Virus record (IMG/VR): IMGVR_UViG_3300015608_002806
DNA from: an uncultured virus (IMG/VR IMGVR_UViG_3300015608_002806)
Taxonomy: Duplodnaviria; Heunggongvirae; Uroviricota; Caudoviricetes
DNA length: 57,815 nucleotides
Reading direction: 5' to 3' (one strand)
Shown here: one piece after another, positions 8,544-54,351 of the stretch
Position numbering within the stretch: position 1 is the first letter of the stretch
Layout of the letters: the number at the start of each line of letters is the position of its first letter
The notes under the pieces: model-generated
Databases searched by the model: none
The model's input: only the letters and a program-made list of their open reading frames with translations
What the model was told of the DNA's origin: nothing
Program-made: the position numbers and the translations under genes

Positions 8544-9620
8544 TTACTTTCTTAAGTAAATATGAGGAGTTCCTTCAATGTGTCCACTGTTGGAAACAAT
8601 ACAAAATTCACAATTTTCTTGAAAATCTAATAAATTCAAGCATCCTGAGTATGAAAAGCCTGATTGTATGCCTTTATGAAGTGAACTTAACACTTTTTCA
8701 AGTTTTCCAGTGTATTTTACTTGTGCAGAAACACCCTCTGCTCGAATTTCTTTTTTACCTGCTGCAATTTGAGCAGCTTCGGATGCTGCTCCTCTATATG
8801 CCTTAAACCATCGTCCTGAGTCATCTTGAATGATGCTGCCTGGAGAGGCTTTTGTTCCTGCCAATAGCGAACCCAACATGACAAAATTGGCACCAAAACC
8901 TAAAGATTTGCAAATATCCCCCGAGTTTTTAATACCACCGTCAGCAATTATTGATTTTTGTGGATTTTTATCAATCCAATTTTCAGATATTTCAATCAAA
9001 GATGACGCTAATGGCATACCATGACCTGTTTGTATCTGTGTTGAACAACTTGCTCCAGAACCAATTCCAACTCTAATTGAATCTGCTCCATTATCAATTA
9101 AAAATCTAAATCCGTCATATGTAGCAACATTTCCGGCCATTATATGATGGTGTGGTTTTAGTATTTTTTTTAATTCAAGAATTGCATTTTTTGCATTTGA
9201 ATGATGGCCGTGCGCAATATCAACACAAATAATTTTAACATTTTTGTTTTTAATTGCTTCTTGTGTTCTTTCTAGAAAATCACCAGATACACCAACCGCA
9301 ACTCCAAAAATTGATTCATTTGTTGATTCTTTTTCTACTATTTCTTGAGCTAATTTTAATTCACTACACATCCAATCAATAGATTTAAATCTATGAAGAA
9401 TACCAAGCCCCCCATTTATACACATCCTGCCAAGCATTTGGTGCTCTGTAACTGTATCCATACAAGAACTAATAATTGGTATTTTAAATTTATATTGTGT
9501 ACCGTTTTCTGAATAAAGACAGGATGATGTATCAACTTGTGATCTTGAAGGGATTTCAGAATATTTTGGAATGATTCTAAAATCATCAAATGATTTAAAT
9601 TCATGTTTATTGATTTTCAT
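8544..9620 (-). CDS. IMP dehydrogenase/GMP reductase family enzyme, no CBS domain
   Basis: SFDD, MDTVTE, VDIAHGH, AGNVAT, RVGIGSGASCST (catalytic Cys), IIADGGI, VMLGSLLAG, EGV; no Arg-Tyr flap dyad. Confidence 0.92.
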   Translation of the reverse strand: MKINKHEFKSFDDFRIIPKYSEIPSRSQVDTSSCLYSENGTQYKFKIPIISSCMDTVTEHQMLGRMCINGGLGILHRFKSIDWMCSELKLAQEIVEKESTNESIFGVAVGVSGDFLERTQEAIKNKNVKIICVDIAHGHHSNAKNAILELKKILKPHHHIMAGNVATYDGFRFLIDNGADSIRVGIGSGASCSTQIQTGHGMPLASSLIEISENWIDKNPQKSIIADGGIKNSGDICKSLGFGANFVMLGSLLAGTKASPGSIIQDDSGRWFKAYRGAASEAAQIAAGKKEIRAEGVSAQVKYTGKLEKVLSSLHKGIQSGFSYSGCLNLLDFQENCEFCIVSNSGHIEGTPHIYLRK

Positions 9621-9637
9621 TTATTCTCCATGTTTAT

Positions 9638-10384
9638 TTATTTAATCTTTTTTCCATTTTTCCAATATTCTTGTTTTATTATATTTCCATTTTGATCATA
9701 TTCAATATAAGCAGGACCATTATCGTTATGACGGTCCCCATTTATAAACCATAATTTATATGAAACATTTCCATTTTCATAATATCGAATATAAGCAGGA
9801 CCATTATCGTTATGACGTTCACCATTTATCCACCATGCTTTATATAAAACATTTCCATTTTGATCATATTTAATATAAGCAGGACCGTTTTCATTATGAT
9901 ATTTGTCGTCTATATACCATTCTTGGTATTTAATATTTCTATTTTCATAATATTCAATATAAGCAGGACCATTTTCATTATGACGTTTACCATTTATCCA
10001 CCATGATTTATATGCAACATTTCCATTTTGATCATATTTAATATAAGCAGGACCGTTTTCATTATGATATTTGTCATCTATATACCATTCTTGGTATTTA
10101 ATATTTCTATTTTCATAATATTGAATATAAGCAGGACCATTCTCGTTATGGAATTTACCATTTATACACCATTCTTTATATTCAACATTTCCATTTGGAT
10201 GATATCCAATTTGTGTTGGCTTATTTTCTTCTTCATCCTTCAATGAATCAATTAATTCATTTTCTGGTTTGTTTTCACTCAAAAGATTTAATGTTGTTTT
10301 AATAATTGAAATTTGTTTATCTGATGATAAATTGTTTTCTGTTTCGTTTAAAAAATATTGAATCCATTTATTTAAATTGTTCAT
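9638..10384 (-). CDS. MORN-variant-like repeat protein, six 28-aa HN(E/D)NGPA units
   Basis: Start placed at 10384 (MNNLNKWIQYFLNE; RBS AAGGAAACAAAATG) by homology with its two paralogs. Confidence 0.85.
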   Translation of the reverse strand: MNNLNKWIQYFLNETENNLSSDKQISIIKTTLNLLSENKPENELIDSLKDEEENKPTQIGYHPNGNVEYKEWCINGKFHNENGPAYIQYYENRNIKYQEWYIDDKYHNENGPAYIKYDQNGNVAYKSWWINGKRHNENGPAYIEYYENRNIKYQEWYIDDKYHNENGPAYIKYDQNGNVLYKAWWINGERHNDNGPAYIRYYENGNVSYKLWFINGDRHNDNGPAYIEYDQNGNIIKQEYWKNGKKIK

Positions 10385-11370: not shown

Positions 11371-11887
11371 CTTGAATTTCCTTTTCGATTTGGTTTATTT
11401 TTTTAATATCACATTCAATTTCAAATTGAATTCTCAAAAGTTCAAGTTGATTTGTATTTAGATTTTCTTTTAAAATATTTTTTTCATGAATGAGTTTTGC
11501 AATTTTATATTTTTTTAACAAAATTGGATATTTTTCTTTTTTTTGATTATATTCAATTTGTTCTTTTTCAAATTTAGATTGTCGTCTGTCAAATTCTTTT
11601 ACTTTTTTATTATATTCTTTCTCAGACATTTCATATTCATTAAATGATATTTTGTATATAGATATTCTGTCATATCCATTTTGTTCTATTTTAAAGTTTG
11701 GATTTGATTTAAATTTTGATAATTTATCAATTAAATCATCAGCAGATAAACCATCAATATAGATGTCCTCTATAAGACTTTCTGTTTTTGTTAAAATAAT
11801 TTTTTTTGGAATTTCTGGTTTTATAGGTTCAGATGGAGGATGAGACGGACTAAACCATTGAGGGAATGTTTCCCCAAACAAATTCAT
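11360..11887 (-). CDS. Hypothetical coiled-coil protein
   Basis: 175-aa ORF with AAGGA RBS. Confidence 0.65.
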   Translation of the reverse strand: MNLFGETFPQWFSPSHPPSEPIKPEIPKKIILTKTESLIEDIYIDGLSADDLIDKLSKFKSNPNFKIEQNGYDRISIYKISFNEYEMSEKEYNKKVKEFDRRQSKFEKEQIEYNQKKEKYPILLKKYKIAKLIHEKNILKENLNTNQLELLRIQFEIECDIKKINQIEKEIQDEQ

Positions 11888-11913
11888 TTATTGTTATGTT
11901 TCCTTATTAATGA

Positions 11914-12411
11914 TTATTTAATTCTTGTTCCATTTTCCCAATATTCTTGTCTTATTATGTTTCCATCTTCATCATATCCAATAATAGCAGGACCATTTTC
12001 GTTATGTTCTTTACCATTTATATACCATGATTTATATTCAACATTTCCATTTGGATAATATCTAATAACAGCAGGACCATTCTCGTTATGACATTTATCA
12101 TTTATCCACCATGCTTTATATTTAACATTTCCATTTTTGTCATATTTAATATAAGCAGGACCATTCTCGTTATGATGTTTATTGTTTATAAACCATGATT
12201 TATATGAAATATTCCCATTTGGATAATATACAATTTGTGTTGGTTTATTTTCTTCTTCATTCTTCACCAAATCAATTGATGGCTTGTCTTCTGTCTTATT
12301 TGCATTAAAAAGATTTAATGTTGTTTTAATAATTGAAATTTGTTTATCTGATGATAAATTGTTTTCTGTTTCGTTTAAAAAATATTGAATCCATTCAGTA
12401 AAATTGTTCAT
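11914..12411 (-). CDS. MORN-variant-like repeat protein, three HNENGPA units
   Basis: Leader near-identical in DNA to that of 9638-10384. Confidence 0.85.
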   Translation of the reverse strand: MNNFTEWIQYFLNETENNLSSDKQISIIKTTLNLFNANKTEDKPSIDLVKNEEENKPTQIVYYPNGNISYKSWFINNKHHNENGPAYIKYDKNGNVKYKAWWINDKCHNENGPAVIRYYPNGNVEYKSWYINGKEHNENGPAIIGYDEDGNIIRQEYWENGTRIK

Positions 12412-13092: not shown

Positions 13093-14033
13093 TCATTTTT
13101 CTCCATAGTTTATATTAAAACAATAATTTTCAAAATTTATTTTTGGTGCATTCCAATTTTTTAAATATTGATTATAATCAAGTTTTAAAAAATTATCTTC
13201 GATAATATCGAAGCAAATAAAACAATTTTTTGATATGTAACAAAAATCAAAATAACCATCGTGTATATTACGTACTATGTAAATCATTTTTGATTTATTT
13301 TTTTGAGTTGCAGTAAATTATTTCTATATATGATTTTGAAATTATATAATGTGTTTTAGGATAAATTTGATAAGGTTTTTTATCTATAAATAATTTATTC
13401 TTATATATAACAATTTGTTTATTTTTAAAATAATAAACATTTTGAAATTCCGATCCTATACAATTATTCATTATAATGCTGGTAATTTTAATCATAGTTT
13501 TTTATAATAATATTTTTTAAATATTGATCTGGATTTGCTTTCCACCATTTTACATCTTGTATACTTGTAACTTTATAAAAAGATAAAGATTGTGATTTAT
13601 CTTTTTTAAGATAAAACATTAAATATGGAGGATTTTCTTTTCTAAGAAAAATATATGTCATTTTTTTAATTTTCCATAGTTTCTAACAAAATAATATATT
13701 GTTGTTTTCTGGTTTGAAAATTGTGAGTTTATCATATGATTTTCTACATATTTCAAATCTCCAAAAATAGAAATATAAATCATTTTTTTACCAAACAAAT
13801 ATCTAAAAACGGTATCTTTAGATTTGGTATTTATTAAAGTTTTAATCATATTTTGTTATAAAATAGTTATTGCTTGAAGTTTGAAATAAAAATTCATAAA
13901 AATTATCATCAGCAATTATCATATTTTTACATCCATTTATATACAATATTTTATTGTTTTTGTGAATAAAATATCTTATAATTGGTTGTAATTTTTTATT
14001 TAAAGCATTTTTAAACATTAAAGTTTGTATCAA
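13093..14033 (-). CDS. Cluster of about 5 mini-ORFs between dnaE and dut
   Basis: MIKTL/MIQTL/MIKIT starts, (R/Y)Y(F/L)...K motif, abutting junctions. Confidence 0.55.
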
Positions 14034-17023
14034 AAAATTTTCTCCATATTTTTATATGCATTAAAAATCATAATTCCTGAATCTGTATATTTTGATGCTG
14101 TTGCAATGTATCCTGCATTTTTTTGTAAATTAATATTTGTGTATCCAAACAATTTTATTGTATTATTTTTAAACGATGAATCTATCGTTTGAATTTCCAT
14201 ATATTTATTATTATTTGATTTTGATATTTTTTCTTCCATAGAAAGAATTATAAACCAAAAATGAGAATCAAGTTCATACTCAATTGCATCTGATATGGTT
14301 GGAATATTTTCTTCTTTTATTACTTTCAAAGCAGAAGCTGGAATTACCTCTGAAAGGTCGTAATATCCCATTAGGGATGATTTTTCTGCTAGTTTTTCTT
14401 CTTTTGTAAATGGTAAATGTTTGCCTTTTTCGTTTTCGATGTGTTTATCAAAATTATATTTTTTTCTCTTAGAGAGGTCTCTGACATCTGAAAGAACCAT
14501 AAACATATGTCTGTCGTTGTCAAATCTTTCATCTTGTAATGACGATAAAGCTCCACACATTGATAAAACTTTTAATTTTGTTTTATTAAGCATTCCTGGT
14601 GGTATTTTTTCATTAAAAATCAAATCTTCCAATTTAGAATAAGGTTGATTTTCAATAACCAATGGTTCCACCTTTTCTCCCAATGATTTAATCAGATTGA
14701 GAGGTGCAAAAAATTTACCATTTTTGTATTCCCATTGATTGGTAGATAAATTAATGTCTGGCAAGGAGATTTTATAACCCATCGACATTAAATTCGATAA
14801 AATTTCAGATTTTTCTTCTGCTTTGCCTTTCATTTCAAAATCAAGTGAAGCACAAATCCATTCATTTGGAAAATAATGCAACAACCATGCGCAAGCATAG
14901 CTATTGTAGCTATAAGAAATTGCGTGTGAAAAATTAAATGAATATGAAATATGGCCAAGAATTTCTTCGTGCCATAATTTTTTAGCTCTTTTTTCTGGAA
15001 TTCCTTTTTCAATGCATCTATTGATGAATTTTTCACCAACCTCAATTCGTTTCCTCTTTAATTCATCACCTAAAGAGGTTGCTGGTTTTGATAATAATTT
15101 TCTTAAATCATCAGCCTCAGAAAGAGAAAATCCAGCCAATTCATGAGCTAATTGCATAAAATTTTCTTGATAAATAATCAATCCATTGGTTGCTTTTAAT
15201 ATTTGTTCGATTAAAGGATGATCCTTTTGTTTTTCTCCATTCACAACTTCAATCCACATTTTGTCCATTCCACCATGAAGTGGTCCTGGACGATAAATAC
15301 TTGTAATTGCAGAAATATCAGTTATGCATTTGGGCTTTGATTGAGTGCAAAATTGTTGAACTCCTGATTCTGTAAATTGAAACACGTTGAAAAATTTTCC
15401 TGACCAATAAATTGATTTAAATACATTTATATCCCCCTGTCCAACAATATCTGGATGAAGATTTTCATTATAAAATTTTCTTATATTTTCAAAAGAAAAA
15501 TCTTTATTTTGATTTTTTAAAATTCTTTCAATGCATAGTTCAATAATTTTTAATGTTTTAATTGCAAGAAAATCAAATTTAATAATACCAAAATCCTCTA
15601 ATGTTCTAATTGTCAATCCTTCTGGAAATGGTGTTTGTGTTTCTCCTCCAACTCTAATCAATGGAAGATCAGCCAATTCATTGGATAACACAGCAATTCC
15701 AGAAGCATGTCTTCCCATGCTGCTGTATTGTTTAAATAATACTTTTATGCTCTCAGCAATTTCAGGGTACTTTTCAATAAATCCACTAAAAGTGGGAGAG
15801 TGCTTCATAGCATTTTCAAAATTTAATTCATATAATTTTTGATCGTTTCCAATATCTGCTAAGATTTTCCATTTTGCTTCATTTTCAATGTTTCTTGTAA
15901 CAGTATTTACTTCATCAAATGGTAAATTGTGTAATTTTGCAATTGCTTTTACTAACGATTTTAATTGATGGGTATTAAAATTGGTAATTGGTACTATTTT
16001 TTCTTCACCAAATTTTTTCCTTAAAATGTCTACAGTTTTATTCTTGTCAGAGGAATCTGAATCAATATCAACGAAGTCATTTCTGTTTTCAGAAAGAAAT
16101 CTTTCAAAGATGCAATTGTGTTTAATTGGATCAATTTGTGTTATTTCTGTAACATATGCCAATAAAGACCCACCAGAACTACCTCTTCCACAACCCAATA
16201 ATTGTTCTTTTCTAATAGCATCCATTGCATCTTTATAAATTAGAAAATATGATGAATATCCTTTTTTAGATACAACATCCAATTCTTTTTTAAGACGTTC
16301 TTTGTAAACTGTATTATTGTGCAGATTTTTTTGTTTTAATCCTTCCCACGCAAGTTCTTCTAGTTTTTGATCTGGATTTTTTACAAGGACTGGTAATTTT
16401 ACAGTTTTGTCAGATTTAATTGATTCAATTTGGTGATGAGCGATTTCATAACTTCTTTGAATTGCTTCTTTTACTAAATTTTCATCGAGTTCTGGATTGT
16501 ATTTTTTATATGTTTCATAAACTTGAGTTCCATTTTTTGGATAAAGTTCGCATTTAAGTTCATCAATGCTCTTTGGGATATCGTCCTTGGATACTTTGTA
16601 TCCTTTTGTTTGACGTGATAATAACCGATAAATTTCACGGTCCTTCCACCATTCTGGTCTGGCATAATGGGAATCTGCTGTTGCAACAACTTTAAATCCA
16701 AATTTTTTTGCAAATTTCACTAAATATTCATTTACAATTTTCTGTTGTGGCAATGCATTGAATTGAATTTCAACATATGCTCTTTCTGGTCCAAAAATAT
16801 CCAATAATGGTTTAAATTCTCTTTCAAGAGATTGAAGAATTTCAAATTCAGATTTTTCTTGATCTCTTAGGATTAAGAAGGATCCAAGTCCGGCTAGGCA
16901 ATTATGCACAAGTATACCGTTTGCAAAAAAACAATTAGTTTTATTGACTTCAATATCATACACATCGGAAATTTCTTCTATATCTTCAATAGATTCAATC
17001 TCTATTTCTTGCCAAGAATTCAT
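14030..17023 (-). CDS. dnaE: DNA polymerase III alpha, C-terminal part (IntC + C-extein)
   Basis: IntC ending FFANGILVHN, then CLAG; ATADSHY, GRGSSGGSLLAY, FERFL, DIDSD, KFDFL, FQF, RPGP, YQE, YSFNFSHA. Confidence 0.95.
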   Translation of the reverse strand: MNSWQEIEIESIEDIEEISDVYDIEVNKTNCFFANGILVHNCLAGLGSFLILRDQEKSEFEILQSLEREFKPLLDIFGPERAYVEIQFNALPQQKIVNEYLVKFAKKFGFKVVATADSHYARPEWWKDREIYRLLSRQTKGYKVSKDDIPKSIDELKCELYPKNGTQVYETYKKYNPELDENLVKEAIQRSYEIAHHQIESIKSDKTVKLPVLVKNPDQKLEELAWEGLKQKNLHNNTVYKERLKKELDVVSKKGYSSYFLIYKDAMDAIRKEQLLGCGRGSSGGSLLAYVTEITQIDPIKHNCIFERFLSENRNDFVDIDSDSSDKNKTVDILRKKFGEEKIVPITNFNTHQLKSLVKAIAKLHNLPFDEVNTVTRNIENEAKWKILADIGNDQKLYELNFENAMKHSPTFSGFIEKYPEIAESIKVLFKQYSSMGRHASGIAVLSNELADLPLIRVGGETQTPFPEGLTIRTLEDFGIIKFDFLAIKTLKIIELCIERILKNQNKDFSFENIRKFYNENLHPDIVGQGDINVFKSIYWSGKFFNVFQFTESGVQQFCTQSKPKCITDISAITSIYRPGPLHGGMDKMWIEVVNGEKQKDHPLIEQILKATNGLIIYQENFMQLAHELAGFSLSEADDLRKLLSKPATSLGDELKRKRIEVGEKFINRCIEKGIPEKRAKKLWHEEILGHISYSFNFSHAISYSYNSYACAWLLHYFPNEWICASLDFEMKGKAEEKSEILSNLMSMGYKISLPDINLSTNQWEYKNGKFFAPLNLIKSLGEKVEPLVIENQPYSKLEDLIFNEKIPPGMLNKTKLKVLSMCGALSSLQDERFDNDRHMFMVLSDVRDLSKRKKYNFDKHIENEKGKHLPFTKEEKLAEKSSLMGYYDLSEVIPASALKVIKEENIPTISDAIEYELDSHFWFIILSMEEKISKSNNNKYMEIQTIDSSFKNNTIKLFGYTNINLQKNAGYIATASKYTDSGIMIFNAYKNMEKIF
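16901..17023 (-). other. Split intein C-fragment (41 aa)
   Basis: VYDIEV (block F) and FFANGILVHN|C (block G with +1 Cys). Confidence 0.93.
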
Positions 17024-17948
17024 TTATGATCTCCATTGTTTTTCTATATTCATCTTCCCAAATTGTTATTAAATTAAATTTTCTTTTTTTTGCAATTTCT
17101 TCTTTGTGATCGTCAATTTTCCATATATAATCAACAGGTATTTCTCCCATTCTTGGTAATTTAATTAAATCACCAGTTTTATATATTTTTTTAGATGCGT
17201 GCCAATACATTCCATTGCATTCTATTAAAAGATTGTATTTAGGTATAAATAAATCATATATGTATTGATTTTTATTAAAAATTTTTTCTTCTGGAAGAAG
17301 TTTTATAGAATATTGTGTTTCAAAAATTATTGAATTTTCATTTAGAATATTTTGTATTTTTTTTTCTAATCCTGAATATTGTATTTTTTGGCTAAAAGAA
17401 CATCCAATTATGGCAATCTGTAAAATTTTTTCTTTGGCTTGTACTTCTGTCAATCCTCTTTTTGTATAAAATTCAATACAAAGAGGACTATTTTCTCTTT
17501 TGAAGTTAGAATTTTTTTGGCCAACTTTTAATGCAGCAGTGAGTTTTTGCCCCTTTTGACAGTTTTTGATTATAAAATTATTAATTTCTTCTTTTGGTGT
17601 ATTTTTTTTAAATTTAAATTGAAATCTAAAAAATAGAGGTGTTTTACTATATTTTTCAAATGAAAAATTTGTTAATTTTTTAAAATAATCGCGAATAATA
17701 TCAATATTATACAGTGGATTTAATCCATAATCTCTTACAAGCATGTCTTTTATCATTGAAAATGAATAATGTTCATTTTCAATTAAATTTTTAATTTCTA
17801 AAAAAGAAATTTTTTTATATATTTCTTCAATTTCTAATTCAAAAAGAGCTTTTCCGTGTCTTGTTAAAGAATTTTGTTTTGCGCATTTGCTTGAACATGT
17901 TTTATTTTTATCGCTTCTAGTTTGTTTTTTACATATTAGACATTCCAT
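16995..17948 (-). mobile_element. Free-standing Vsr-like homing endonuclease between the intein halves
   Basis: N-terminal CxxC...CSxxC; C-terminal YDLFIP..LLIECNGMYWH...D..K..IA....NLITIWE. Confidence 0.85.
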
Positions 17949-17955
17949 TTGTCCA

Positions 17956-17978
17956 CCCCCCTAAAATAAATAGGGGGG
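17956..17978 (-). promoter_or_regulatory. RBS-sequestering hairpin upstream of the endonuclease
   Basis: CCCCCCTA-TTTATTT-TAGGGGGG, with the G-run 8-13 nt before ATG 17948. Confidence 0.7.
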
Positions 17979-17997
17979 ATTTTAAAATAGAAAAAAA

Positions 17998-18300
17998 TTA
18001 AAGCGAAATTATTTTATCATTTTTTTGTAAAAATTGAGCTTCTATCCAGCCTCTATTTGAGGTATAAACTTTGTGGTCTGGAGTTAGCTTTAGCTCTTTG
18101 CCGCATTTTGTTTTTAGTTTTAATAAACTAGCTTTTTTTCTCGTCATTCCAGCCCAATTTATTTTTTCAAAAACTAAAGATTTTGTATCAAAATTAAAAC
18201 TTAATACAAAGATTTCTTCATTGCTTTTCCATAAATCAAAAACTTCTTTGATTGTTTTTATTCCAAAATTTGTTATTAATTCAGATTTTGGGTGCAAACA
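17998..18300 (-). other. Split intein N-fragment (100 aa)
   Basis: C1-LHPKSELIT (block A), LKLTPDHKVYT (block B TxxH), GWIEAQFL, then stop. Confidence 0.93.
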
Positions 18301-18834
18301 AGCCGAACTTATAATTAAGCCATCATTATATTTTTCCAATAAATTAAAATCTATTCTTGGATAATAATAATAATTTTGCCCAGAATGAGAAAGGGATGTT
18401 AAACTAAATAAATTTTTTAATCCAATTTGGTTTTGAGCCAGAACAACAAGATGATGTCTTCTTTTTAATGGATTAAAGTATTTTTTTTCTTTTGATTCTT
18501 CTTCAACTTCAATTGAAGATTCTGATGAATCCTCTTCTTTTTTTAATTTTTCATTTTGATCATGTTCTAATTTATCTTTTTTCCATTGTTCAATGGATGG
18601 TATTAAATAAAATTCATTTCCAAAAATTGGTTTAAAATTTATTCCTTTTTTCTTTAAATTTGATTGAGCCTGTAGCATATAAGACATAGCATTCATGTTG
18701 CCATGATCAGTAATTGCCAATGCCATAGATTCAGATTCTGCATTTTCGATAACAAATTTAAAATGATCTTCTGGATAGTTTAATCCGTCACCAATTGATG
18801 CACATGTGTGCGCATGTAGTCCAACAAATTTCAT
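17998..18834 (-). CDS. dnaE: DNA polymerase III alpha, N-terminal part (PHP N-extein + IntN)
   Basis: LHAHT.ASIGDG, AITDHG, KPIFGNE, HLVVLAQN, PRID, then SSA|CLHP. Confidence 0.95.
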   Translation of the reverse strand: MKFVGLHAHTCASIGDGLNYPEDHFKFVIENAESESMALAITDHGNMNAMSYMLQAQSNLKKKGINFKPIFGNEFYLIPSIEQWKKDKLEHDQNEKLKKEEDSSESSIEVEEESKEKKYFNPLKRRHHLVVLAQNQIGLKNLFSLTSLSHSGQNYYYYPRIDFNLLEKYNDGLIISSACLHPKSELITNFGIKTIKEVFDLWKSNEEIFVLSFNFDTKSLVFEKINWAGMTRKKASLLKLKTKCGKELKLTPDHKVYTSNRGWIEAQFLQKNDKIISL

Positions 18835-22729: not shown

Positions 22730-22755
22730 TTTGTTCCTTGTAAGTTTTGTTTATT

Positions 22756-23326
22756 TTAATTTAAATATTGTTTTGTTGTAGGGCAATGTTTTGAAAGATA
22801 TTTTGAATCTTTTTCGTAAGAAAAACTGTATATTCTACATACACATAAAAATTTATTCCTTTGAATGGTTGCTGTTAAAAATAAATTTTTATTTATTTTA
22901 AACATAACATGAGTGCTTATTCTGTCAACAACTGTTGTAATCATGTATTCAATCCGAATATTGTTTTGTTGTAGGGTAATATTGCAAAAGATGTTTTAAA
23001 TGTTCTTTATAAGAAAAATTGATAATTTTACAATCATCAAAAAAATTATTCTTTGAAATGGTTATTGTTAAAATCAAATTTTTTTTTATTTTAACAACAA
23101 CATAAATACTTTCATTATCAACACATGTTGTAATCATGATTTAGTCCAAATATTGTTGAGTATGAGGATAATGTTTTTTAAACATTTTTAATTCAGAATT
23201 GTAATTAATTGTAAGAATTTCAAATTCTTTCATAAAACACGATGCTTCAATTGATAATAAAATTAAATTTTTATTTATTTTATAAACAATATAAACACCA
23301 ATATTATCAACACATGTAAAAAGCAT
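22756..23326 (-). repeat. Tandem triplication of a ~190-bp mini-gene
   Basis: MITTVVD/MITTCVD/MLFTCVD...KI.KNL...P.T.QY, alignable at DNA level. Confidence 0.85.
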
Positions 23327-27399: not shown

Positions 27400-27810
27400 T
27401 TATAAAAATTACTTATTAGATTTTTTGATTTTTGTAATCTAAAATTTTGTGAAAATTTTTCATAAAAATCAAAAATCATAACAAAATGATGGTTTTTTAT
27501 TACAACATATTTTTCATTATGGATTAAATATCCAATTTCAAAAGAATTATTTTTACTTAAAAAAGTGTAAATCATAATAATTACTCATGGCGTGTATTAA
27601 AATAATATGGTGTATTAGAAATTTCAGTAATTTTGTTTAAATATTCTACATTAAGCTTCCGCAATAAATGCGAATTTTTTTTCTATTTAATGAATAGTCA
27701 AAAATTACATTTAATGAAAATTTGCAATTTGAAAATATTAAATTTGAACAAAAATTATGTTTTAAATTAGAAATCTCAAATGTAATCATTTTTATTGCTC
27801 ATATTTTTAT

Positions 27811-28350
27811 TTAAAAAGAATAATTAACTGCTTGTGTTTTGTTGGATTTTTGTTTATAAATTGAACACCATATAGCAGCTTGAACCTGACATGGTTTCCA
27901 ATTTAAATGTTTTGATATTTTCTGAATATCTTTTTTTGCAAGATTCATTTTTGTTTTTGACCATTTGTTTTTTACATTGAATGCTGATGCCATGTGTGTA
28001 TCCAATACAATGGCATCATTGTTTCCAATTAAGGCTTCATAAAATTGTGAAATTTTTGGACCATTTATTTGGCCTGTTTGTAAAAACATTTTTGCATTAT
28101 TTTTAACAATTGAACAATGTTTTATTTTTTCACAAGCTTCAATGTTTGCGCCATTTTTGATCCAATCCAATACAATTTTCATATTGTGCTCAAGTCTTAT
28201 GTTTTGACTTGTTATTGCAGTTATTCCTGCAATTGTTTTGTATGGTATGTTGTATTGTTTTGCAAGAAATTTTAAATTTTTTCTAGCTTTTGTATACCAA
28301 AATCTATCCTTTTTTGATTGAATTGCCAATTCTAAAATCTTTTTTTTCAA
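27811..28350 (-). CDS. Phage protein with HhH-GPD/DNA-glycosylase-like motifs
   Basis: WY..A, IAGITAITS, GPKISQFY, VLDTHM, QAAIW. Confidence 0.55.
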   Translation of the reverse strand: MKKKILELAIQSKKDRFWYTKARKNLKFLAKQYNIPYKTIAGITAITSQNIRLEHNMKIVLDWIKNGANIEACEKIKHCSIVKNNAKMFLQTGQINGPKISQFYEALIGNNDAIVLDTHMASAFNVKNKWSKTKMNLAKKDIQKISKHLNWKPCQVQAAIWCSIYKQKSNKTQAVNYSF

Positions 28351-28596
28351 TTATACCTCCGATATTTCTACTCCATATATTGTGTTGTATGTATAGTACA
28401 TGTTTGATTCTTTGTTGCCAAGATAGACTCTATTTTTTTTAACAGACACACACATTACATTATGTATATAAAAACTTGATTTAAATGTTTTGTTTTTCAT
28501 ATCAAACATATTTACCTCAATCATTTTATCATTCAATAAATATGCTAAGTAAATAGCTCTATTTGGTTCTTTAATGTATTGAATTCCAATCATCAA
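28351..28596 (-). CDS. Mini-ORF family member
   Basis: MMIGIQY...IYLAYLLNDK. Confidence 0.5.
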   Translation of the reverse strand: MMIGIQYIKEPNRAIYLAYLLNDKMIEVNMFDMKNKTFKSSFYIHNVMCVSVKKNRVYLGNKESNMYYTYNTIYGVEISEV

Positions 28597-28613
28597 TTAT
28601 TATCCTTCGTAGA

Positions 28614-29036
28614 TTATCGTAGAATTTGTGATAATCTATCAAATACATTTGGATGATTGTTTTTCAAAAAATTTAAAAGTTCATCCGTACATGATTCACT
28701 ATCTGGTTGTTCAATCCAAGAATAAACAGCATCAAATTCTTTTAAATTATTTTGCTTTTTATCAATTGTTGACCAATTAAACCGATTGGGTGGTTTGTGA
28801 TTTGTTTCAGATTCATTTACAGACCACGCATATTTATCTGCGCTTGCATAAAGTGTTTTGGCTGCAAGCATTTTGGATAAAACAATTTTCAAACCTCTTT
28901 CGGTTACTTTTTCGCCAGCATTCCAATTATTTTCATTTGCTGTTTTTAATACATTTGGATAGCTGTCCCATGCAATTGTTTGAAAATATTTTTGAAGATT
29001 TTCTTTGAGTGAAAGATTGTTATTATTGTTTGACAT
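28614..29036 (-). CDS. Hypothetical protein
   Basis: 140-aa ORF with AGGAG RBS. Confidence 0.7.
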   Translation of the reverse strand: MSNNNNNLSLKENLQKYFQTIAWDSYPNVLKTANENNWNAGEKVTERGLKIVLSKMLAAKTLYASADKYAWSVNESETNHKPPNRFNWSTIDKKQNNLKEFDAVYSWIEQPDSESCTDELLNFLKNNHPNVFDRLSQILR

Positions 29037-29045
29037 TTTATCTCC

Positions 29046-29222
29046 TTAGTGATTTAAAGTCTTTGCGTAGCATTTTTTTTCACAATCTGAACAGCATGTG
29101 CAATTAAAAATACTGTCATGAATTTCAATATGAAAGGGACACCATTTGTTTTTTGATTCCTTTCCACATTTTTCACATTTTATTGATGGTTTTGTTGTTT
29201 TTGAGCTATTGTTGTCTGTCAT
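29046..29222 (-). CDS. Small Cys-rich zinc-binding protein (58 aa, below the ORF-track cutoff)
   Basis: MTDNNSS...CEKCG...WCPFH.EIH...CTCCSDCEKKC. Confidence 0.65.
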   Translation of the reverse strand: MTDNNSSKTTKPSIKCEKCGKESKNKWCPFHIEIHDSIFNCTCCSDCEKKCYAKTLNH

Positions 29223-29255
29223 ATTTTTATTTTTTGAACATTATTTATTTTCAAA

Positions 29256-29393
29256 TAGGGCCGTTGATTAGGGGAGCGATGGGGGAAAGCGCGAAGGGCA
29301 GGGAAGTCCCGTTTTTGCCACCGTAGACCGCCCGATTGGACCTTTAGCGGGTTCCCCTACGCTCCGCGCTTCCAACACTTCTAAACCGCCCTA
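29256..29393 (-). ncRNA. Unassigned structured RNA (long P1, three-way junction, possible pseudoknot)
   Basis: GC-rich intergenic island; the helices close with G-U pairs only on the - strand. Confidence 0.65.
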
Positions 29394-29409
29394 GAAGACA
29401 CGTCTCGAA

Positions 29410-30390
29410 TTATTTGCAAAAACGACCAGAAGCATCGCGTTTTTGCCAATTGGACACACTCTTCTCGTGCTCAGTTGGATTTGGAACATTTGGGTGCTTA
29501 CAAGATTGTTCTTTCCACAGTTTTCCATTTTTACAAATAAAATCTGAACATTCTTCTAATTCATCGTATGAATTATTGTATGAATTTTCATTATTGTCAT
29601 CATATGAAAATTCATCATCTTTTTCATATCTGAAATTTTCAACCTCAGAAGGTGAATAAAGAGAAGAAAGAGGTTTGTCATAATATGACAAAACTGTATA
29701 TTCACATGTTCTTAATTTTGTACAAGAATGATCTGATGGAATTGATACAACATTTTTTGGATTTACCTTGACTACAAGAATTTTGTCACCGTCTCTTGCA
29801 AACCATTTAATGTACTCCAGAGAGCCACAATGCAAACCATGAGAGCAATGATTTTGTGGGTTGTCATCAACTTTATTTCTAGGAACAGAAATAACAGAAC
29901 CAATCTCGTTCAAGATTGTATTGCTGTGTTTGTCATAAAGTGTTGATCTAACAGCTTTGTATGCAAGAAAACAACCATCATCAGTAATTGGTAAATTTTT
30001 GTGCTCTAAAAATGAATATAGTTGATCTACAGATCTTTTTGATGGATTGTCCATGAGGTTTTCCATGAATCTCATTAGAGGCTCATGTGGAAGATCTAAA
30101 TCAATGTAATCTCTGATTTTATTAGCAATTACATTGTCTACTTCTTCTCCGTTGTACAATAGAGTACCATCATCTGATAGATGACAGCCAAATTTTGGAA
30201 GCAATTGTTTTTTGGAACTTTGAGAAGATTGAGTTTTCATTAAAGAATCAATTAAAGCTTCATCTTGATTTACAATTGCTTCTTTTAGTTTTCCAAATCG
30301 CTTATCAGAGATTAAACATTGATAAACTCCTTTTTGAGTAGAAACAATTAAAACATCATTTTGAAGAATGAAAGAAATTTGAGTATTCAT
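29410..30390 (-). CDS. rIIB: RIIB-like protein
   Basis: LPITDDGCFLAYKAV, VDDNP...CSHGLHCGS, VKVNPKNVVSIP.D, KLRTCEY. Confidence 0.88.
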   Translation of the reverse strand: MNTQISFILQNDVLIVSTQKGVYQCLISDKRFGKLKEAIVNQDEALIDSLMKTQSSQSSKKQLLPKFGCHLSDDGTLLYNGEEVDNVIANKIRDYIDLDLPHEPLMRFMENLMDNPSKRSVDQLYSFLEHKNLPITDDGCFLAYKAVRSTLYDKHSNTILNEIGSVISVPRNKVDDNPQNHCSHGLHCGSLEYIKWFARDGDKILVVKVNPKNVVSIPSDHSCTKLRTCEYTVLSYYDKPLSSLYSPSEVENFRYEKDDEFSYDDNNENSYNNSYDELEECSDFICKNGKLWKEQSCKHPNVPNPTEHEKSVSNWQKRDASGRFCK

Positions 30391-30429
30391 GTTTGTCCTT
30401 TGTTGTTGATTTATTGAATTAAAAATTAT

Positions 30430-31421
30430 TTATAAATAAATTTTATTTTTTTCATTTTTATGAAACTTGGTATTAAATCGAAAATTAACATTTGGTATAA
30501 TATTAATTTGTTCTTTAAATATGTTTTTATTTATTGTTACAAATAAACATTTATATTTTTCATCATCAAGATTACATGCGTGTAATGTATAGTAAACCAT
30601 GAAATCAATAATATTATTTTTAGATAAAGATTTTATTGGATAAATTACAATCATTTGTAATATCTATATTTTGATGTTTGTATTTGTTTATAAAACGTTA
30701 CATTTGTTATAATGTATAGTTTAAATAAAGAATTAAGACCAACATAAAAACAATCCCATTGATTATTAAATTTTTGTCTAAATGCATAATAAAATCTAAT
30801 GGTATTATTTGAATTATAATTGTTGCCAATGTTCATTATTGAAATCATTATTTGTAAAATTTTAATTTTTTTGTGGATAAACAATTACCCATATTGGTAT
30901 ATTTAAGAATTTGCATATTATTATTGTATTTATCCACAAATATACAATGATATTGATTATGTGTGATCATTTTAAACGAATAATAAAACCATATATCATT
31001 ATATTTGTCTTGTCTATTATAAACTAGAATCATTTGCACCAAACTATTTGATTAGGATTATCGAAATAATGTTTAAATGGTTTTCTTAGTGAAAAATTTA
31101 AGTAATAATTTGTGCTAATACTTAAATAAGGATCATTTCTGACAAAAAGAGATGAAAAATCATATCGTGATTTTTTTTGATTTAAACATGTAATAAAAAT
31201 AATAGTGTTTTGTATTGTTCGCGCTTAAATTATAAATTGTAATCATATGTCTTTATTGTTCTGTAATCATTGTAAAAATTTATATTAACATCATTTAAGA
31301 CCTTAAAAGTATATGGATTGTATTTTGGGCAAAATGATGAAGAAAATACAAATGTCCTATTTCTAACGTGATAATAAAACCAAATCATTTTCATATGTTG
31401 TGGATTGAAAACAAAAATCAT
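30430..31421 (-). CDS. Cluster of about 5 paralogous mini-ORFs between rIIA and rIIB
   Basis: Shared I.FYY.F / VYY and C.FV motifs. Confidence 0.6.
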
Positions 31422-31424
31422 TTT

Positions 31425-33824
31425 TTATGCCAATATTGATGAAATGTTTTCAATAAAAAATTCATCAAAATTTGATTGTTTGATTTTAAATCTTGATATA
31501 TTATTTTTCATTTGTTCATATGAAGAGCACAATGATGAAAAATCTTGAATAATTTTTGCATTTACATGGTTCAATGTAGAACCATAATCTTTTAATATTT
31601 TTGCTAATTTTACAGGGTCTTTTAATCGCCAAAAACCACAACCAAAAAGAAAATTCATAAAATTATAGTTGAAATTTTTGTAAAAATCATTTATATAATT
31701 TTCAATTAAATTGATTGAAACAATGTCTGATTGATTATTGTGTTTTAATTTAATAGTTTCAAATATTTTTTGAGAAATTTTTGGATTATTTTTATTTATT
31801 AATAAAATCTCATGACCAATAGTTGCTGATATATTATTGTATATTGTTGTATATTGCTGTCTTAATTCTGAAAATTTTTCCATTTCCTCAGAAAGATTTA
31901 CAAAATTAATTGTTGGATATTTATCAATAAATGATTTACCCAAAACAGGGGTTAGCAATAAAATTTCTTTGTGAACTGATTTTGGATCGGTTTTATTTTC
32001 TGCACATAGAAACTTTATTAATTCTGTAAATGAATTTTTTAAATACCAATTTATGTCATTACAAGTTCCAATTTTTTTACAATCAACAAAATTGTCATAA
32101 TAATCATTTATTGATTTGACTAAATAATAAACTTTCTTTTTTGAGAAGAAAATATTAGGATCATCTTTTTTCTCAACAGCAACACCAACAGTAGGATCCA
32201 AAACAACAAAACCACGTTTTTCTGGTTCTTTTTTTGTTTTTTGTTCCTTTGGTTTTGGCGTTACTTTGATTTTACTAGCATATTTAATTTCCAAAAATGA
32301 AAAATTAATATTTTCAATTTTGGATTTAATATTTTCTGCATCCTCTTTTGTGTTTACAACAACAACACAAGGATACACCAAAAGAAGTTCATTTACTTGA
32401 TTTGTATACAAAGACTGATCTTTGATTAAAATACAAATTGTTCTTCTTTCTTGAGTGATATTTTCTTTTAACCAATTTCCATATTGTGTGTATGTGAATC
32501 TTAAATCAAAATAATTTTTTGAAAAATATCTAATAAATTTATGACAACCAAATAATTTATTTGGGAAAAATTTTAAATCTTTTATGTCGTTATCTGATGG
32601 TGTAATAGTTTTTAAATTGGATTTTGATTCAAATTTAATTTGAGATTGCTGATCAACAAAATCAGAAGACAATAATGATTTATTGAATAAAATACAATTA
32701 CTTTGATAACGTGAACATATTTCTCTTTCTGGAAAGTCTAATAATTTAATTTTTTTATCAAAAATTGATAAATTTTTATCTTCTTTTACTGAAATTATAT
32801 CACTACCACGAATAGAAAAAAATTCTTCCATCCATAAAGTAATTGCTTTAGCGGTTCTTGGAGTTAATTGAACGGCCTCTCTAGATGTTGCAATATCAAT
32901 TGCTCCAATTGGGAAATTTATTACCAATTGAATTTTTTCAGTAGATAGGTACTGATTGTATGGTAAATTTTTTAGAAAATAATATAATTTTGATATATAA
33001 TTTGAATCTGATTTTATTACATTGAAAAATGTATGGTCTGTTATTTCATATAAAACATTTCCCATTTTAGCCAAAATATTATTATTTGCATTGTAATAAT
33101 GATCTTTTTTTTCTGTATTATAGAAATAAAATTTATAATTATTTTTTTCAATAACTTCAATTGAAGATTGAAGTTTTACTTTTTTTGAATCTGTTAACCA
33201 ATTTGATTGATCAACAATATAGATATTTGGTTTTATGTCAAATGGAGCATATACAAAATTTATTTCTTCTTTGAAGAAATTTATATCTGTAGTGTTATTT
33301 ACAATAAAAGAAATTTCTAATCCATTTGGTTCATTTGTGTCTTGTTCTGAAACCATTGATAATGTTGGGATATCTTCTTCATTTTTGAAATTAAAAAATG
33401 TATATTTTTTCCCATTAAAATATGAAATTGTGGTAAATTGTGAAACAAGAGCAAATGGAGATTTTGAGCCCAATCCCATGAATCCAACAAATTCATTTGA
33501 TGAAGTTTTGTCAGATGATCCATATGTTGAATACAATCTTTCAACATCTTCTTTAGACAAACCCGTTCCATAATCTCTTATTTTAAAAATATTGTCTTTT
33601 AAAGATGATGGCAAATAAACATCAAAAGGTTTATCTGCACATTTTGCAGTAATGTGTGCATCGTATGCATTTGTTGACAACTCTCGTAAAACAGCTCGAA
33701 CTTTATTCGAATAAATATTATTCGAAAGAATGTTCATCATTTTAGAGTTTGCAAGAATCTTATATGTAGTTTTATTTCCTACATTTGAAGAAATTAATGT
33801 TTTTTCAACTTCTGATTGAATCAT
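31425..33824 (-). CDS. rIIA: RIIA-like protein (GHKL ATPase)
   Basis: YSNKVRAVLRELSTNAYDAH, IRDYGTGL, GFMGLGSKSPFA, SRE. Confidence 0.9.
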   Translation of the reverse strand: MIQSEVEKTLISSNVGNKTTYKILANSKMMNILSNNIYSNKVRAVLRELSTNAYDAHITAKCADKPFDVYLPSSLKDNIFKIRDYGTGLSKEDVERLYSTYGSSDKTSSNEFVGFMGLGSKSPFALVSQFTTISYFNGKKYTFFNFKNEEDIPTLSMVSEQDTNEPNGLEISFIVNNTTDINFFKEEINFVYAPFDIKPNIYIVDQSNWLTDSKKVKLQSSIEVIEKNNYKFYFYNTEKKDHYYNANNNILAKMGNVLYEITDHTFFNVIKSDSNYISKLYYFLKNLPYNQYLSTEKIQLVINFPIGAIDIATSREAVQLTPRTAKAITLWMEEFFSIRGSDIISVKEDKNLSIFDKKIKLLDFPEREICSRYQSNCILFNKSLLSSDFVDQQSQIKFESKSNLKTITPSDNDIKDLKFFPNKLFGCHKFIRYFSKNYFDLRFTYTQYGNWLKENITQERRTICILIKDQSLYTNQVNELLLVYPCVVVVNTKEDAENIKSKIENINFSFLEIKYASKIKVTPKPKEQKTKKEPEKRGFVVLDPTVGVAVEKKDDPNIFFSKKKVYYLVKSINDYYDNFVDCKKIGTCNDINWYLKNSFTELIKFLCAENKTDPKSVHKEILLLTPVLGKSFIDKYPTINFVNLSEEMEKFSELRQQYTTIYNNISATIGHEILLINKNNPKISQKIFETIKLKHNNQSDIVSINLIENYINDFYKNFNYNFMNFLFGCGFWRLKDPVKLAKILKDYGSTLNHVNAKIIQDFSSLCSSYEQMKNNISRFKIKQSNFDEFFIENISSILA

Positions 33825-34739: not shown

Positions 34740-34835
34740 ATTAAAGTCTCCACACGGTATTTTGTTTTAATAACAATTAAAAGAAAAGAATCTCATGGTT
34801 CATATTTTGCAATACAAACCATGAGATTCAACAAT

Positions 34836-39895: not shown

Positions 39896-39975
39896 TGGTG
39901 GGGTTGGTCGGGATCGAACCGACGTGTAACCAGTTACGCTTTCAAGCGCTTATAAGGCGCAGGCGATACAACCCC
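39896..39975 (-). tRNA. Atypical tRNA-like RNA, anticodon UAU (Ile), encoded CCA
   Basis: GGGGTTG/CAACCCC acceptor + A + CCA; T arm GTCGG-TTCGATC-CCGAC; GCGC-CTTATAA-GCGC arm; no D arm in the normal position. Confidence 0.8.
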
Positions 39976-44384: not shown

Positions 44385-44441
44385 TGCAAACATGCGGGAA
44401 TTGTGGTCGTAGGGATAAACCGTAATTCCCGCATGTTTGCA
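44385..44441. repeat. Perfect 18-bp inverted repeat with 21-nt spacer
   Basis: TGCAAACATGCGGGAATT / AATTCCCGCATGTTTGCA. Confidence 0.9.
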
Positions 44442-44659
44442 GACAAGAGCGACAAAAGTGCCAATAAAATGACGACTATGACGTTGTTGTATCTTTAAAT
44501 TCTAATCTTTCAAAAATTGGCTCAACATCAACAATAACAGGCATTGAAACAATAAAATTGTCATTATATCTTTCATATTTCATAACAATTTCTGGTATTT
44601 CATATGCTGCCATATATTTGTGAGCCAATTCTTGTGGAATTAGAATTTGGAACTCAGAC

Positions 44660-49733: not shown

Positions 49734-49793
49734 AATGTTTTAAGTCTTAAATGTTAGTTTTGTGTTACAATTATGTGTTTTTAAAAAAAATAT

Positions 49794-50201
49794 TTATTTA
49801 ATTTTTTTTCCATTTTTCCAATATTCTTGTGTTATTATATTTCCATTTTGATCATATTTAATATAAGCAGGACCATTATCGTTATGACGTTTATTGTTTG
49901 TCCACCATTCTTTATATGAAACATTTTCATTTGGATAATATCCAATACCAGCAGGACCATTCTCATTATGTAATTTATTATTTATCAACCATGCTTTATA
50001 TTTAATATTTCCATTTGGATAATATTCAATTTTTGTTGGCTTATTTTCTTCGTCCTTCAATGAATCAATTGATTTATTTTCTGGTTTGCTTTCATTTAAA
50101 AGATTTAAAACACCTTCAATTATCAAAATTTGTTTATCTGATGATAATATGTTGTTTGTTTCATTTAAAAAATATTGAATCCATTCATTAAAATTATTCA
50201 T
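49794..50201 (-). CDS. MORN-variant-like repeat protein, two units
   Basis: Third paralog, with a closely similar leader, the same RBS as the 10384 copy and a QEYWKNGKKIK end. Confidence 0.85.
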   Translation of the reverse strand: MNNFNEWIQYFLNETNNILSSDKQILIIEGVLNLLNESKPENKSIDSLKDEENKPTKIEYYPNGNIKYKAWLINNKLHNENGPAGIGYYPNENVSYKEWWTNNKRHNDNGPAYIKYDQNGNIITQEYWKNGKKIK

Positions 50202-50212
50202 TTTGTTTCCTT

Positions 50213-50701
50213 TTAAATTTTATTATTAAATCTTTTTACAAAACGATCATGCAAAACAATGCTGCCAGCAACACCGACATTTAGACTAATTTCACCAGCA
50301 ATTTTAACAACATGATTGCATTGCTTTAAAATTGATTCTGGAATTCCTGAATCTTCTGCTCCAAGCAAATAAACAGCTCTTTCTGGATGATTGAAATCAT
50401 GAATCCACTTTGCTTTTTCTCCCATTTCAATGGCAACAATTGAAACATTTGGATGAATTACACTTTTAAATTGTTCAAATGTTTCAAATGAAAAAGTTGG
50501 TACATGAAGATGAGATTTTGTTGTGTCACTTTTTTGGGCTTTGTATCTTTTTCCAATTGTAAAAATAAAATCATTTCCCCAAATAGCAGCAGATCTTAAC
50601 AATAAACCCATGTTAATTTCTGTTTTTCCATTGAAAATTCCAATACCAGAATATCCTTTTCCTTTAAAAATAGATTCATTAATTTCTTTAAACTGGAACA
50701 T
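50213..50701 (-). CDS. SpoU/TrmH-family RNA 2'-O-methyltransferase
   Basis: NMGLLLRSA..G, YLLGAEDSGIP, SLNVGVAGSIVL. Confidence 0.9.
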   Translation of the reverse strand: MFQFKEINESIFKGKGYSGIGIFNGKTEINMGLLLRSAAIWGNDFIFTIGKRYKAQKSDTTKSHLHVPTFSFETFEQFKSVIHPNVSIVAIEMGEKAKWIHDFNHPERAVYLLGAEDSGIPESILKQCNHVVKIAGEISLNVGVAGSIVLHDRFVKRFNNKI

Positions 50702-53544: not shown

Positions 53545-54276
53545 TTCTGTTTCTCCTATTGATTATTTTGTTATTGATTTAATCAAGAAATTTAAATTTA
53601 TTTTTTAATTAGTCACTTAAATTGATTTTTACAGTATCTATATCTTTTGAAACATTTTGTAATTTAGAATACAATTCTATAGAAAGCAGACAATAATTTT
53701 TACAATCAAAAATAATTCTTAAATCTTTAAGATTTTTAGAAGTTTTTGATTTAAATGTGTAATAAATATAATTTTTAGATGAAAATTTATGAAGAATAAT
53801 ATCAATCATAATAAATTTTCCTAATTTCATCAAAATTTATTCTTAAATCTTCTAAAACATACTTTCTAGATGAAAGAATAAATGAATAATATAATTTAGA
53901 AAAAGATTGAGAAGAAGTTATTTTTGATAAAATTTCTTTTTTGTCTGAAACTTTAAAAAATAAAAGAATTCTATTTTGTTTTTCTAAAATAATTTCAATC
54001 ATTTTATTAATTCAAATCCGGTTGTGAAACAGGAATGATATAATTTGCATTGTATCCAGCTTTAATAAACTTTTTTGCTGTTAAATACAAATCACTCTCT
54101 GTATTAAACAATTCAAAAAAATTCATTGTTGTTGAAATGGCATCATTGAGATAATTATTAGGAATGCCAAGCAAACGCATTTGCATTCCAATCAACATAA
54201 AAATCCTTTCAGTCAATTCATCAGGAAGGGTTGTCATATATATTTGTTCCTTTAATTTTGAATTATTCGCAGTTTA

Positions 54277-54348
54277 TCGCGCAACAGGTTCCCCACTAGG
54301 GGACCTTAATTACGCAGATTGTTCGGTCAAGTTCTGCACATAGCGCGA
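54277..54348 (-). ncRNA. Small three-way-junction structured RNA/cis element
   Basis: TCGCGC/GCGCGA closing stem, TGTGCAGA/TCTGCGTA, AGGTCCCC-TAGT-GGGG(A)ACCT. Confidence 0.55.
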
Positions 54349-54351
54349 AAA

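Follow-up and report, generated by a model that had tools for sequence, protein, structure and literature searches.

A candidate undescribed GC-rich RNA element downstream of rIIB in a deeply divergent, AT-rich phage

The window analysed here, a single stretch of 57,815 nucleotides (57.8 kb), has a GC content of 26.0% and reads like a section of a huge phage that is deeply divergent. Almost all of its genes lie on the minus strand. They encode, among others, GroEL, ClpP, an IMPDH/GMP-reductase-like protein, ThyX, a PurA-like protein, an intein-interrupted DnaE and a MoxR/VWA pair. The standard genetic code suits the window, and the alternative codes that were tried did not improve the open reading frames. 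Analysis of k-mer enrichment upstream of 127 ORFs yielded no clear phage promoter motif. The features of the rII and DnaE loci are the following.

31425-33824: rIIA
29410..30390, minus strand: rIIB, 326 aa (tblastn to annotated rIIB genes and PHROG 609)
29416..29448, minus strand: small hairpin where the rIIB ORF ends, GGCAAAAACG / CGUUUUUGC (folding)
29412-29410, minus strand: rIIB stop codon TAA, 17 nt upstream of the GC-rich hairpin
29256..29393, minus strand: GC-rich (60%) 138-nt RNA domain, a predicted single long irregular hairpin (sequence, folding)
29223..29255, minus strand: AT-rich spacer of 33 nt, from the hairpin to the start of the following ORF
29046..29222, minus strand: Cys-rich ORF downstream of the hairpin, 58 aa
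17998-18834, minus strand: PHP domain of DnaE and the N-terminal part of the intein
16995-17948, minus strand: 317-aa ORF between the DnaE halves, no Pfam match
14030-17023, minus strand: C-terminal part of the intein and the polymerase of DnaE

The DnaE-type polymerase is thus divided over two ORFs within 14030-18834 (minus strand), which, to judge from the sequence, is a split or ORF-interrupted intein arrangement. Three paralogous genes (9583-10302, 11859-12326 and 49739-50213) consist of 84-nt (28-aa) tandem repeats, with a weak match to MORN_2 in one of the three. Three tandem units of about 190 nt at 22755-23326 form a series of small paralogous ORFs.

The gene upstream of the hairpin is indeed rIIB, as the first-pass annotation had named it. 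The best tblastn matches are annotated rIIB genes with 40-48% identity over the conserved domain, and the product matches PHROG 609, "RIIB lysis inhibitor", with E 9e-59. Relatives of this rIIB were found in 13 loci of the viral_contigs collection (at most 45% identity) and in 34 loci of metagenome_contigs (at most 48%). DnaE is at most 31% identical to proteins of GenBank phages, and a downstream gene of 140 aa has no match in GenBank phages or viral_contigs. By these three genes, no close relative of the phage exists in the collections searched. A search with the IMPDH-like gene of the phage for the host lineage gave no relative in genome_contigs. DNA nearly identical to positions 27500-31500 is present in 20 listed runs from 14 studies (2017-2025), four of which may be the source itself; the habitats are wastewater, river, estuary, activated sludge and aquaculture. 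Thus this divergent AT-rich phage is widespread. No RNA run carrying the sequence is among 22 runs listed.

The GC-rich element occupies most of the 187 nt that separate the rIIB stop codon from the start of the 58-aa ORF (29222), its first base lying 17 nt past the former and its last base 33 nt before the latter. All neighbouring genes share its strand. The position, strand and letters of 29256..29393 agree with those initially reported, and so does the sharp rise in composition: in 100-nt windows the GC content is 58%, compared to 14-35% in the flanks. In 80-nt windows it reaches 65%, the highest value in the window, and the whole intergenic region has 50% GC. The element is non-coding. All three minus-strand frames are closed inside it, and on this strand it contains no ORF of at least 40 aa; a 45-aa frame within rIIB (29391..29528) only touches its first three bases. 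Its termini are inverted repeats, TAGGGC...GCCCTA. Read-through of the rIIB stop codon stimulated by the hairpin was considered and found no support; the frame would add only 21 codons. Downstream, the 33-nt spacer contains neither a U-tract terminator (terminator scan) nor a Shine-Dalgarno-like motif, and the Cys-rich 58-aa ORF has no match in Pfam or PHROG.

Both the minimum free energy structure and the ensemble (ViennaRNA) predict one long irregular hairpin, hereafter the rod, with 48 pairs (29 GC, 13 AU and 6 GU) and an energy of -61.5 kcal/mol. In RNA positions, it consists of the following parts.

1-6/133-138, 8-13/123-131, 15-18/116-119, 20-22/112-114: helices of the lower part
23-32/98-107, 34-41/89-96, 43-46/83-86: helices of the upper part
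47-82: loosely structured apex

The pair probabilities of the rod are mostly at least 0.95, and the uncertainty is confined to the 36-nt apex. The three upper helices are interrupted by single mismatches only and form a quasi-continuous segment of about 22 bp. Among all 140-nt windows of the 57.8 kb, the one at the element is the most stable (-61.6 kcal/mol, with a mean of -19.8 and a standard deviation of 6.9), largely because of its GC content. Comparison with dinucleotide shuffles gives a z-score of -2.83 for the minus strand, with one shuffle in 200 equally stable. A 306-nt context folds with z -3.12, a level reached by none of 100 shuffles, and the upstream 127 nt alone are unremarkable (z -0.59). 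By these folding calculations, the predicted structure of the element goes moderately beyond chance.

The plus strand can fold as well. However, its energy is -53.8 kcal/mol (z -1.17, with 24 of 200 dinucleotide shuffles equally stable), so that the minus strand is ahead by 7.7 kcal/mol, owing to the six G.U pairs. The G.U pairs and the difference in z-scores fit selection for the RNA read from the gene strand. These data bear on the possibility that the element acts as DNA, or is selfish or foreign: an imperfect GC-rich palindrome (MITE-like, or a site of recombination or protein binding), or a remnant from a GC-richer genome. We consider this explanation unlikely. The imperfect inverted repeat, its matching termini, the fold of the plus strand and a base composition foreign to the genome all speak for it. 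On the other hand, six G.U pairs compared to at most two possible A.C pairs favour the minus-strand RNA, although this bias is not significant (binomial probability about 0.15), and no other copy was found in any of the places searched. Within the window, repeat analysis revealed no further copy. Three exact or gapped patterns of the element had no match in viral_contigs, and its terminal-inverted-repeat pattern had none in genome_contigs. A covariance model built from the single sequence of the element with its minimum free energy structure, when run over the window and 61 loci (318 kb), recovered only the element itself with 170 bits and its own antisense with 21 bits; it had no match in ten whole records of related phages. 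A MITE-like or otherwise palindromic repeat would have several dispersed copies with conserved terminal inverted repeats, and none was seen in these sequences. The blastn search in "distant" mode against 50,697 GenBank phage records gave only chance matches of 19-30 nt.

Variation between strains is consistent with the rod, albeit weakly. A contig of run X16, of depth 2.6, has two differences inside the element, C118U and C120A. The former changes the G16-C118 pair to G.U, so that the rod is kept, and the latter falls within a bulge of the rod. At the strain level the element is not conserved above its flanks, as there are two differences in 57 nt covered, compared to 1.4-6.9% in the neighbouring coding pieces. 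In the contigs of four DNA runs the element is nearly uncovered (bins 29271-29392). The contigs of run X7 stop at 29263 and restart at 29385 with primer-like loose ends, and the hole was taken as technical.

A different anatomy had been proposed for the same region by the first-pass annotation: an interrupted stem closing two hairpins, that is, a three-way junction, in which pairing between loops makes a pseudoknot and a further helix excludes the main fold. Read as a switch, such an RNA would control the downstream gene in the manner of a riboswitch. All the helices of this scheme can indeed be written: UAGGGC/GCCCUA, GGAAGCGCGGA/UUCGCGCUUUC (11 bp, two of them G.U), CGUAGG/UCUACG with CCCG/CGGG, and GGCA/UGCC. 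However, this set of helices alone has an energy of -22.9 kcal/mol; when the rest of the sequence may fold around it, the optimum is -36.9, about 25 kcal/mol above the rod. The proposed pseudoknot between AGGUCC (29338-29343) and GGACUU (29304-29309) is one of 34 complementarities of 6 nt in the element, compared to 21 +/- 7 in shuffled sequences, and thus does not go beyond chance; moreover, GGACUU is already paired within the favoured rod. The exclusive helix fared better, as GGAGCG..GGGGAA/UUCCCC..CGCUCC with its 6+6 bp does exist, but the best fold that includes it reaches only -53.4 kcal/mol.

One more alternative pairing may be added to this scheme. The 11-nt word TGGCAAAAACG, which forms the 5' arm of the small hairpin at the end of rIIB (29448-29438), has an exact second copy in the apex of the rod (29320-29310), so that two partners would be available to CGUUUUUGC next to the stop codon. 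This is a weak indication, since such isolated repeats turn up a few times per window. The junction with its pseudoknot and the switch lose to the rod by 8-25 kcal/mol. Besides, there is no expression platform, since there is no terminator-like site or ribosome-binding site embedded in the fold, the hairpin has only three U behind it, and its distance to the start codon is 33 nt. In the strain variant, C120A would disrupt the alternative helix, a weak argument at depth 2.6. A riboswitch, with a conserved aptamer and an expression platform overlapping the alternative helices, is not supported as a class either, no aptamer family of Rfam giving a match to support it even at E up to 10. Taken together, the junction-and-switch reading is very unlikely.

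The absence of a known family, on the other hand, was borne out. Rfam 15 has no match above the gathering score anywhere in the window. A search of the region alone gave only mir-207, mir-H1, mir-3072, a Pseudomonas sRNA and the Na+ riboswitch aptamer, with 11-20 bits (E 0.1-9), compared to gathering scores of 40-97 bits for these families; the miRNA-hairpin matches (E at least 0.1) are at chance level. ARAGORN with default settings found no tRNA or tmRNA genes. At 80% thresholds, it made no call on 29256-29393 among the matches listed and produced many false positives elsewhere.

Several particular classes were considered and rejected. An intrinsic (Rho-independent) terminator is a GC-rich stem directly followed by a U-tract (at least five U in eight positions). 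Here the stem is followed by UUUGAAAA with only three U, and the terminator scan was negative at the element; a site of the classic terminator form, a hairpin with an AU-rich stem and a U-tract, is found elsewhere in this phage, at about 34780-34830. The ykkC/guanidine-I family was suggested by the words CUAGGG, GGUCC and ACGG..AAAAA..CGGGA, but no Rfam match to it was seen even at E up to 10. A CRISPR-repeat-like sequence or an RNA anti-CRISPR was dismissed, since no CRISPR-DR family matches the element.

In sum, the GC-rich element is real and discrete, codes for no protein, folds strongly by prediction and is an orphan outside the described families. Of the initial suggestion of a novel non-coding RNA downstream of rIIB, the non-coding status, the gene strand, the high GC content and a fold better than that of shuffled sequences hold, but the junction, pseudoknot and switch are not supported. 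On these grounds and in the absence of a known family, we regard it as a candidate undescribed RNA element.

Outside miscalled ORFs, the window has only four intergenic regions with at least 40% GC, including the element, and there is no sequence relation among the four. The other three are listed here.

39896-39975, minus strand: 80 nt, tmRNA/tRNA-like acceptor stem, T-arm (GUCGG UUCGAUC CCGAC) and encoded ACCA, with about 38 nt in between
54275-54350, minus strand: 40% GC, directly after a stop codon, stem UCGCGC/GCGCGA and two hairpins
44396-44462: in an intergenic region of 43% GC, inverted repeat whose arms GCAAACATGCGGGAATT ... AATTCCCGCATGTTTGC match perfectly over 17 bp around a loop of 24 nt, no U-tract

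The first of these matches the tmRNA family of Rfam with 22.1 bits (E 1.4e-7 in a search of 151 nt), the gathering score being 47. ARAGORN calls it at 80% thresholds only, and the third pair of its acceptor stem is G-C rather than G.U. A mini-tmRNA reduced to the tRNA-like domain is one possibility, an aberrant tRNA another. By eye, the region 54275-54350 can be arranged into a small three-way junction, and its only Rfam match is a chance-level CRISPR-DR (E 2.8). The inverted repeat at 44396-44462 folds equally well on both strands, which is compatible with a site of DNA binding or with a hairpin for processing. Since at least one other GC-rich gap of this genome, that at 39896-39975, is RNA-gene-like, such gaps tend to mark structured RNAs. 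The longest complementarity of the element RNA to other transcripts of the window is 11 nt, which is uninformative.

The DNA downstream of rIIB was also read in 47 distant rIIB loci. Some have a plain terminator hairpin there, and others a conserved block of higher GC content right after the stop codon. The latter is a multi-branched RNA of about 195 nt, encoded on the rIIB strand in metagenomic large phages of 37-47% GC, and is called family X below. A 19-nt invariant block of this family led to 13 more viral loci.

Family X loci: L004:3260-3454, L006:4030-4224, L015:3846-4040, L005:2832-3026, L009:4431-4647, L012:4405-4619; 22 further rIIB loci; L048-L060

RNAalifold of 11 sequences gave 59 pairs, 28 of them with compensatory changes. 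In 22 distinct sequences, 98.5% of the cells pair, compared to 31-44% in slid controls; 36 of the 59 pairs have double (compensatory) changes, and none of 500 shuffles reaches any of these measures. A covariance model of the family (195 positions, 59 pairs) detects it in 28 of 48 rIIB loci, from the phages with the most similar rIIB and always on the rIIB strand, with scores of 131-219 bits; the loci include near-duplicates and records filed in two collections. Family X comprises ten helices, has single-stranded blocks that are invariant, and precedes a classic terminator. It starts directly after the stop codon of rIIB (0-12 nt past it, in seven loci) or of one small ORF behind rIIB (about 364-431 nt, in 21 loci), and its GC content is above that of the surroundings. 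It has no Rfam match at E up to 0.1 and no blastn match in GenBank phages, and no description of it, or of any structured RNA linked to rIIB, was found in the literature. Thus it looks like an undescribed RNA family. Since a terminator hairpin or a structured RNA lies downstream of rIIB in distantly related phages, RNA elements just after a stop codon recur at this site.

Whether the element of this window might belong to family X in a highly diverged or reduced form was assessed with the same model. The position relative to rIIB is the same, and MAFFT aligns the shared words UAGGGC-GGUU.AG, GUCUAC and CGG.ACUU. However, these words are reordered, the invariant blocks ACCU, AAUGUAAC and GCACUU are absent or altered, and the model forced onto the region (251 nt, filters off) scores -0.7 bits with E 0.88. 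With filters off over the whole window, it gives 37 weak matches, none of them on the element. Hence common descent is largely refuted and can be given hardly any weight; as far as the sequences tell, the relation between the element and family X is positional, not homologous.

A bolder explanation of the shared position is a conserved "RNA slot" behind rIIB in this broad group of phages, filled by family X in most relatives and by an unrelated GC-rich rod in this AT-rich lineage. A structured RNA would then be a partner of the rII system, and the element a second, independent solution. We regard this as quite improbable. If true, the RNA partner could be, for example, sensed, sequestered or protected during the rII-mediated escape from host exclusion.

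The reading that we prefer, with a probability of about 0.35, is that the element is a co-transcribed hairpin in the 3' UTR of rIIB and acts in cis in RNA processing or stability. It would be transcribed as the tail of the rIIB message, since there is no room for a promoter of its own between the stop codon and the fold, and would fold into a very stable rod of about 48 bp. This rod may be a site of cleavage by an RNase III-type double-stranded RNA nuclease, a barrier to 3'-exonucleases, or both. An RNase III site needs about two turns (at least 20 bp) of nearly continuous double-stranded RNA in an mRNA, and the predicted helix of the element would offer such a stretch. In this way the rod would separate the rIIA-rIIB message from the downstream cluster of small genes and protect it. 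Processing could also release a stable RNA of about 140 nt. We infer the transcription, the cleavage and the stabilising role. Against this reading, 138 nt with 60% GC in a genome of 26% GC are an investment that would be more typical of stable functional RNAs, for example tRNAs.

The latter argument leads to an RNA acting in trans, which is nearly as likely as the hairpin acting in cis. The RNA would be a stable structured non-coding RNA of a new family, for example a decoy or sponge binding a protein, cut from the 3' UTR of rIIB and with a role analogous to that of family X; the weakly paired 36-nt apex could be its functional head. The element is by far the strongest GC island in the window and belongs to no Rfam family, the gap at 39896-39975 resembles an RNA gene with its mimic of the tmRNA acceptor and T-arm, and family X sets a precedent (28/48 rIIB loci, 36/59 compensatory pairs). 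Against this, no homologue, promoter or terminator of the element was found, the rod is simple rather than an ornate multi-junction RNA, and it is unrelated in sequence to family X and to the other GC-rich elements of the window. The weight remaining beside the listed explanations goes to chance.

Taken alone, a single hairpin with no homologues is of limited value. If it is a functional RNA, it is an orphan structured RNA in a deeply divergent, very AT-rich huge phage. The more solid by-product of the analysis is family X and the recurrence of structured RNAs downstream of rIIB. Together, family X and the element, if functional, suggest that structured RNAs immediately behind stop codons are recurrently associated with rII, a locus that has long been enigmatic.

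The preferred reading, a cis-acting processing hairpin, has a counterpart in phage T7. The intergenic RNase III sites of T7 are irregular hairpins with no U-tract, located between co-directional genes, and cleavage leaves a protective 3' hairpin on the upstream message. These sites are about 60 nt long and are not enriched in GC. Similarly to the T7 sites (such as R1.1), the element is an irregular hairpin with no U-tract on the mRNA strand between co-directional genes, its predicted continuous double-stranded RNA (about 22 bp and more) would be enough for RNase III, and cleavage would provide the upstream message with a hairpin that protects its 3' end. Unlike them, it is 138 nt long, is extremely enriched in GC relative to its genome, and has no sequence similarity to them.

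With family X the element shares the rIIB strand, the position just behind a stop codon and a GC content above that of the surroundings. However, family X is multi-branched, with ten helices and a terminator, whereas the element is a rod with no terminator. Bacterial 6S RNA and adenovirus VA RNA resemble it in being GC-rich, about 140-180 nt long and largely double-stranded, with paired 5' and 3' ends. Families of the 6S and VA type have no Rfam match to the element even at E up to 10; it lacks the large central bubble of 6S RNA and the central-domain pseudoknot of VA RNA.

Finally, the element resembles the candidates of the GC-IGR screens of the Breaker laboratory. In two reports on these (PMC6429828, PMC11109978), GC-rich intergenic regions serve to predict non-coding RNAs in AT-rich genomes, and the candidates are confirmed through covariation among homologues. 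The region of the element, with 50% GC over 187 nt in a genome of 26% GC, stands out by the same criterion.
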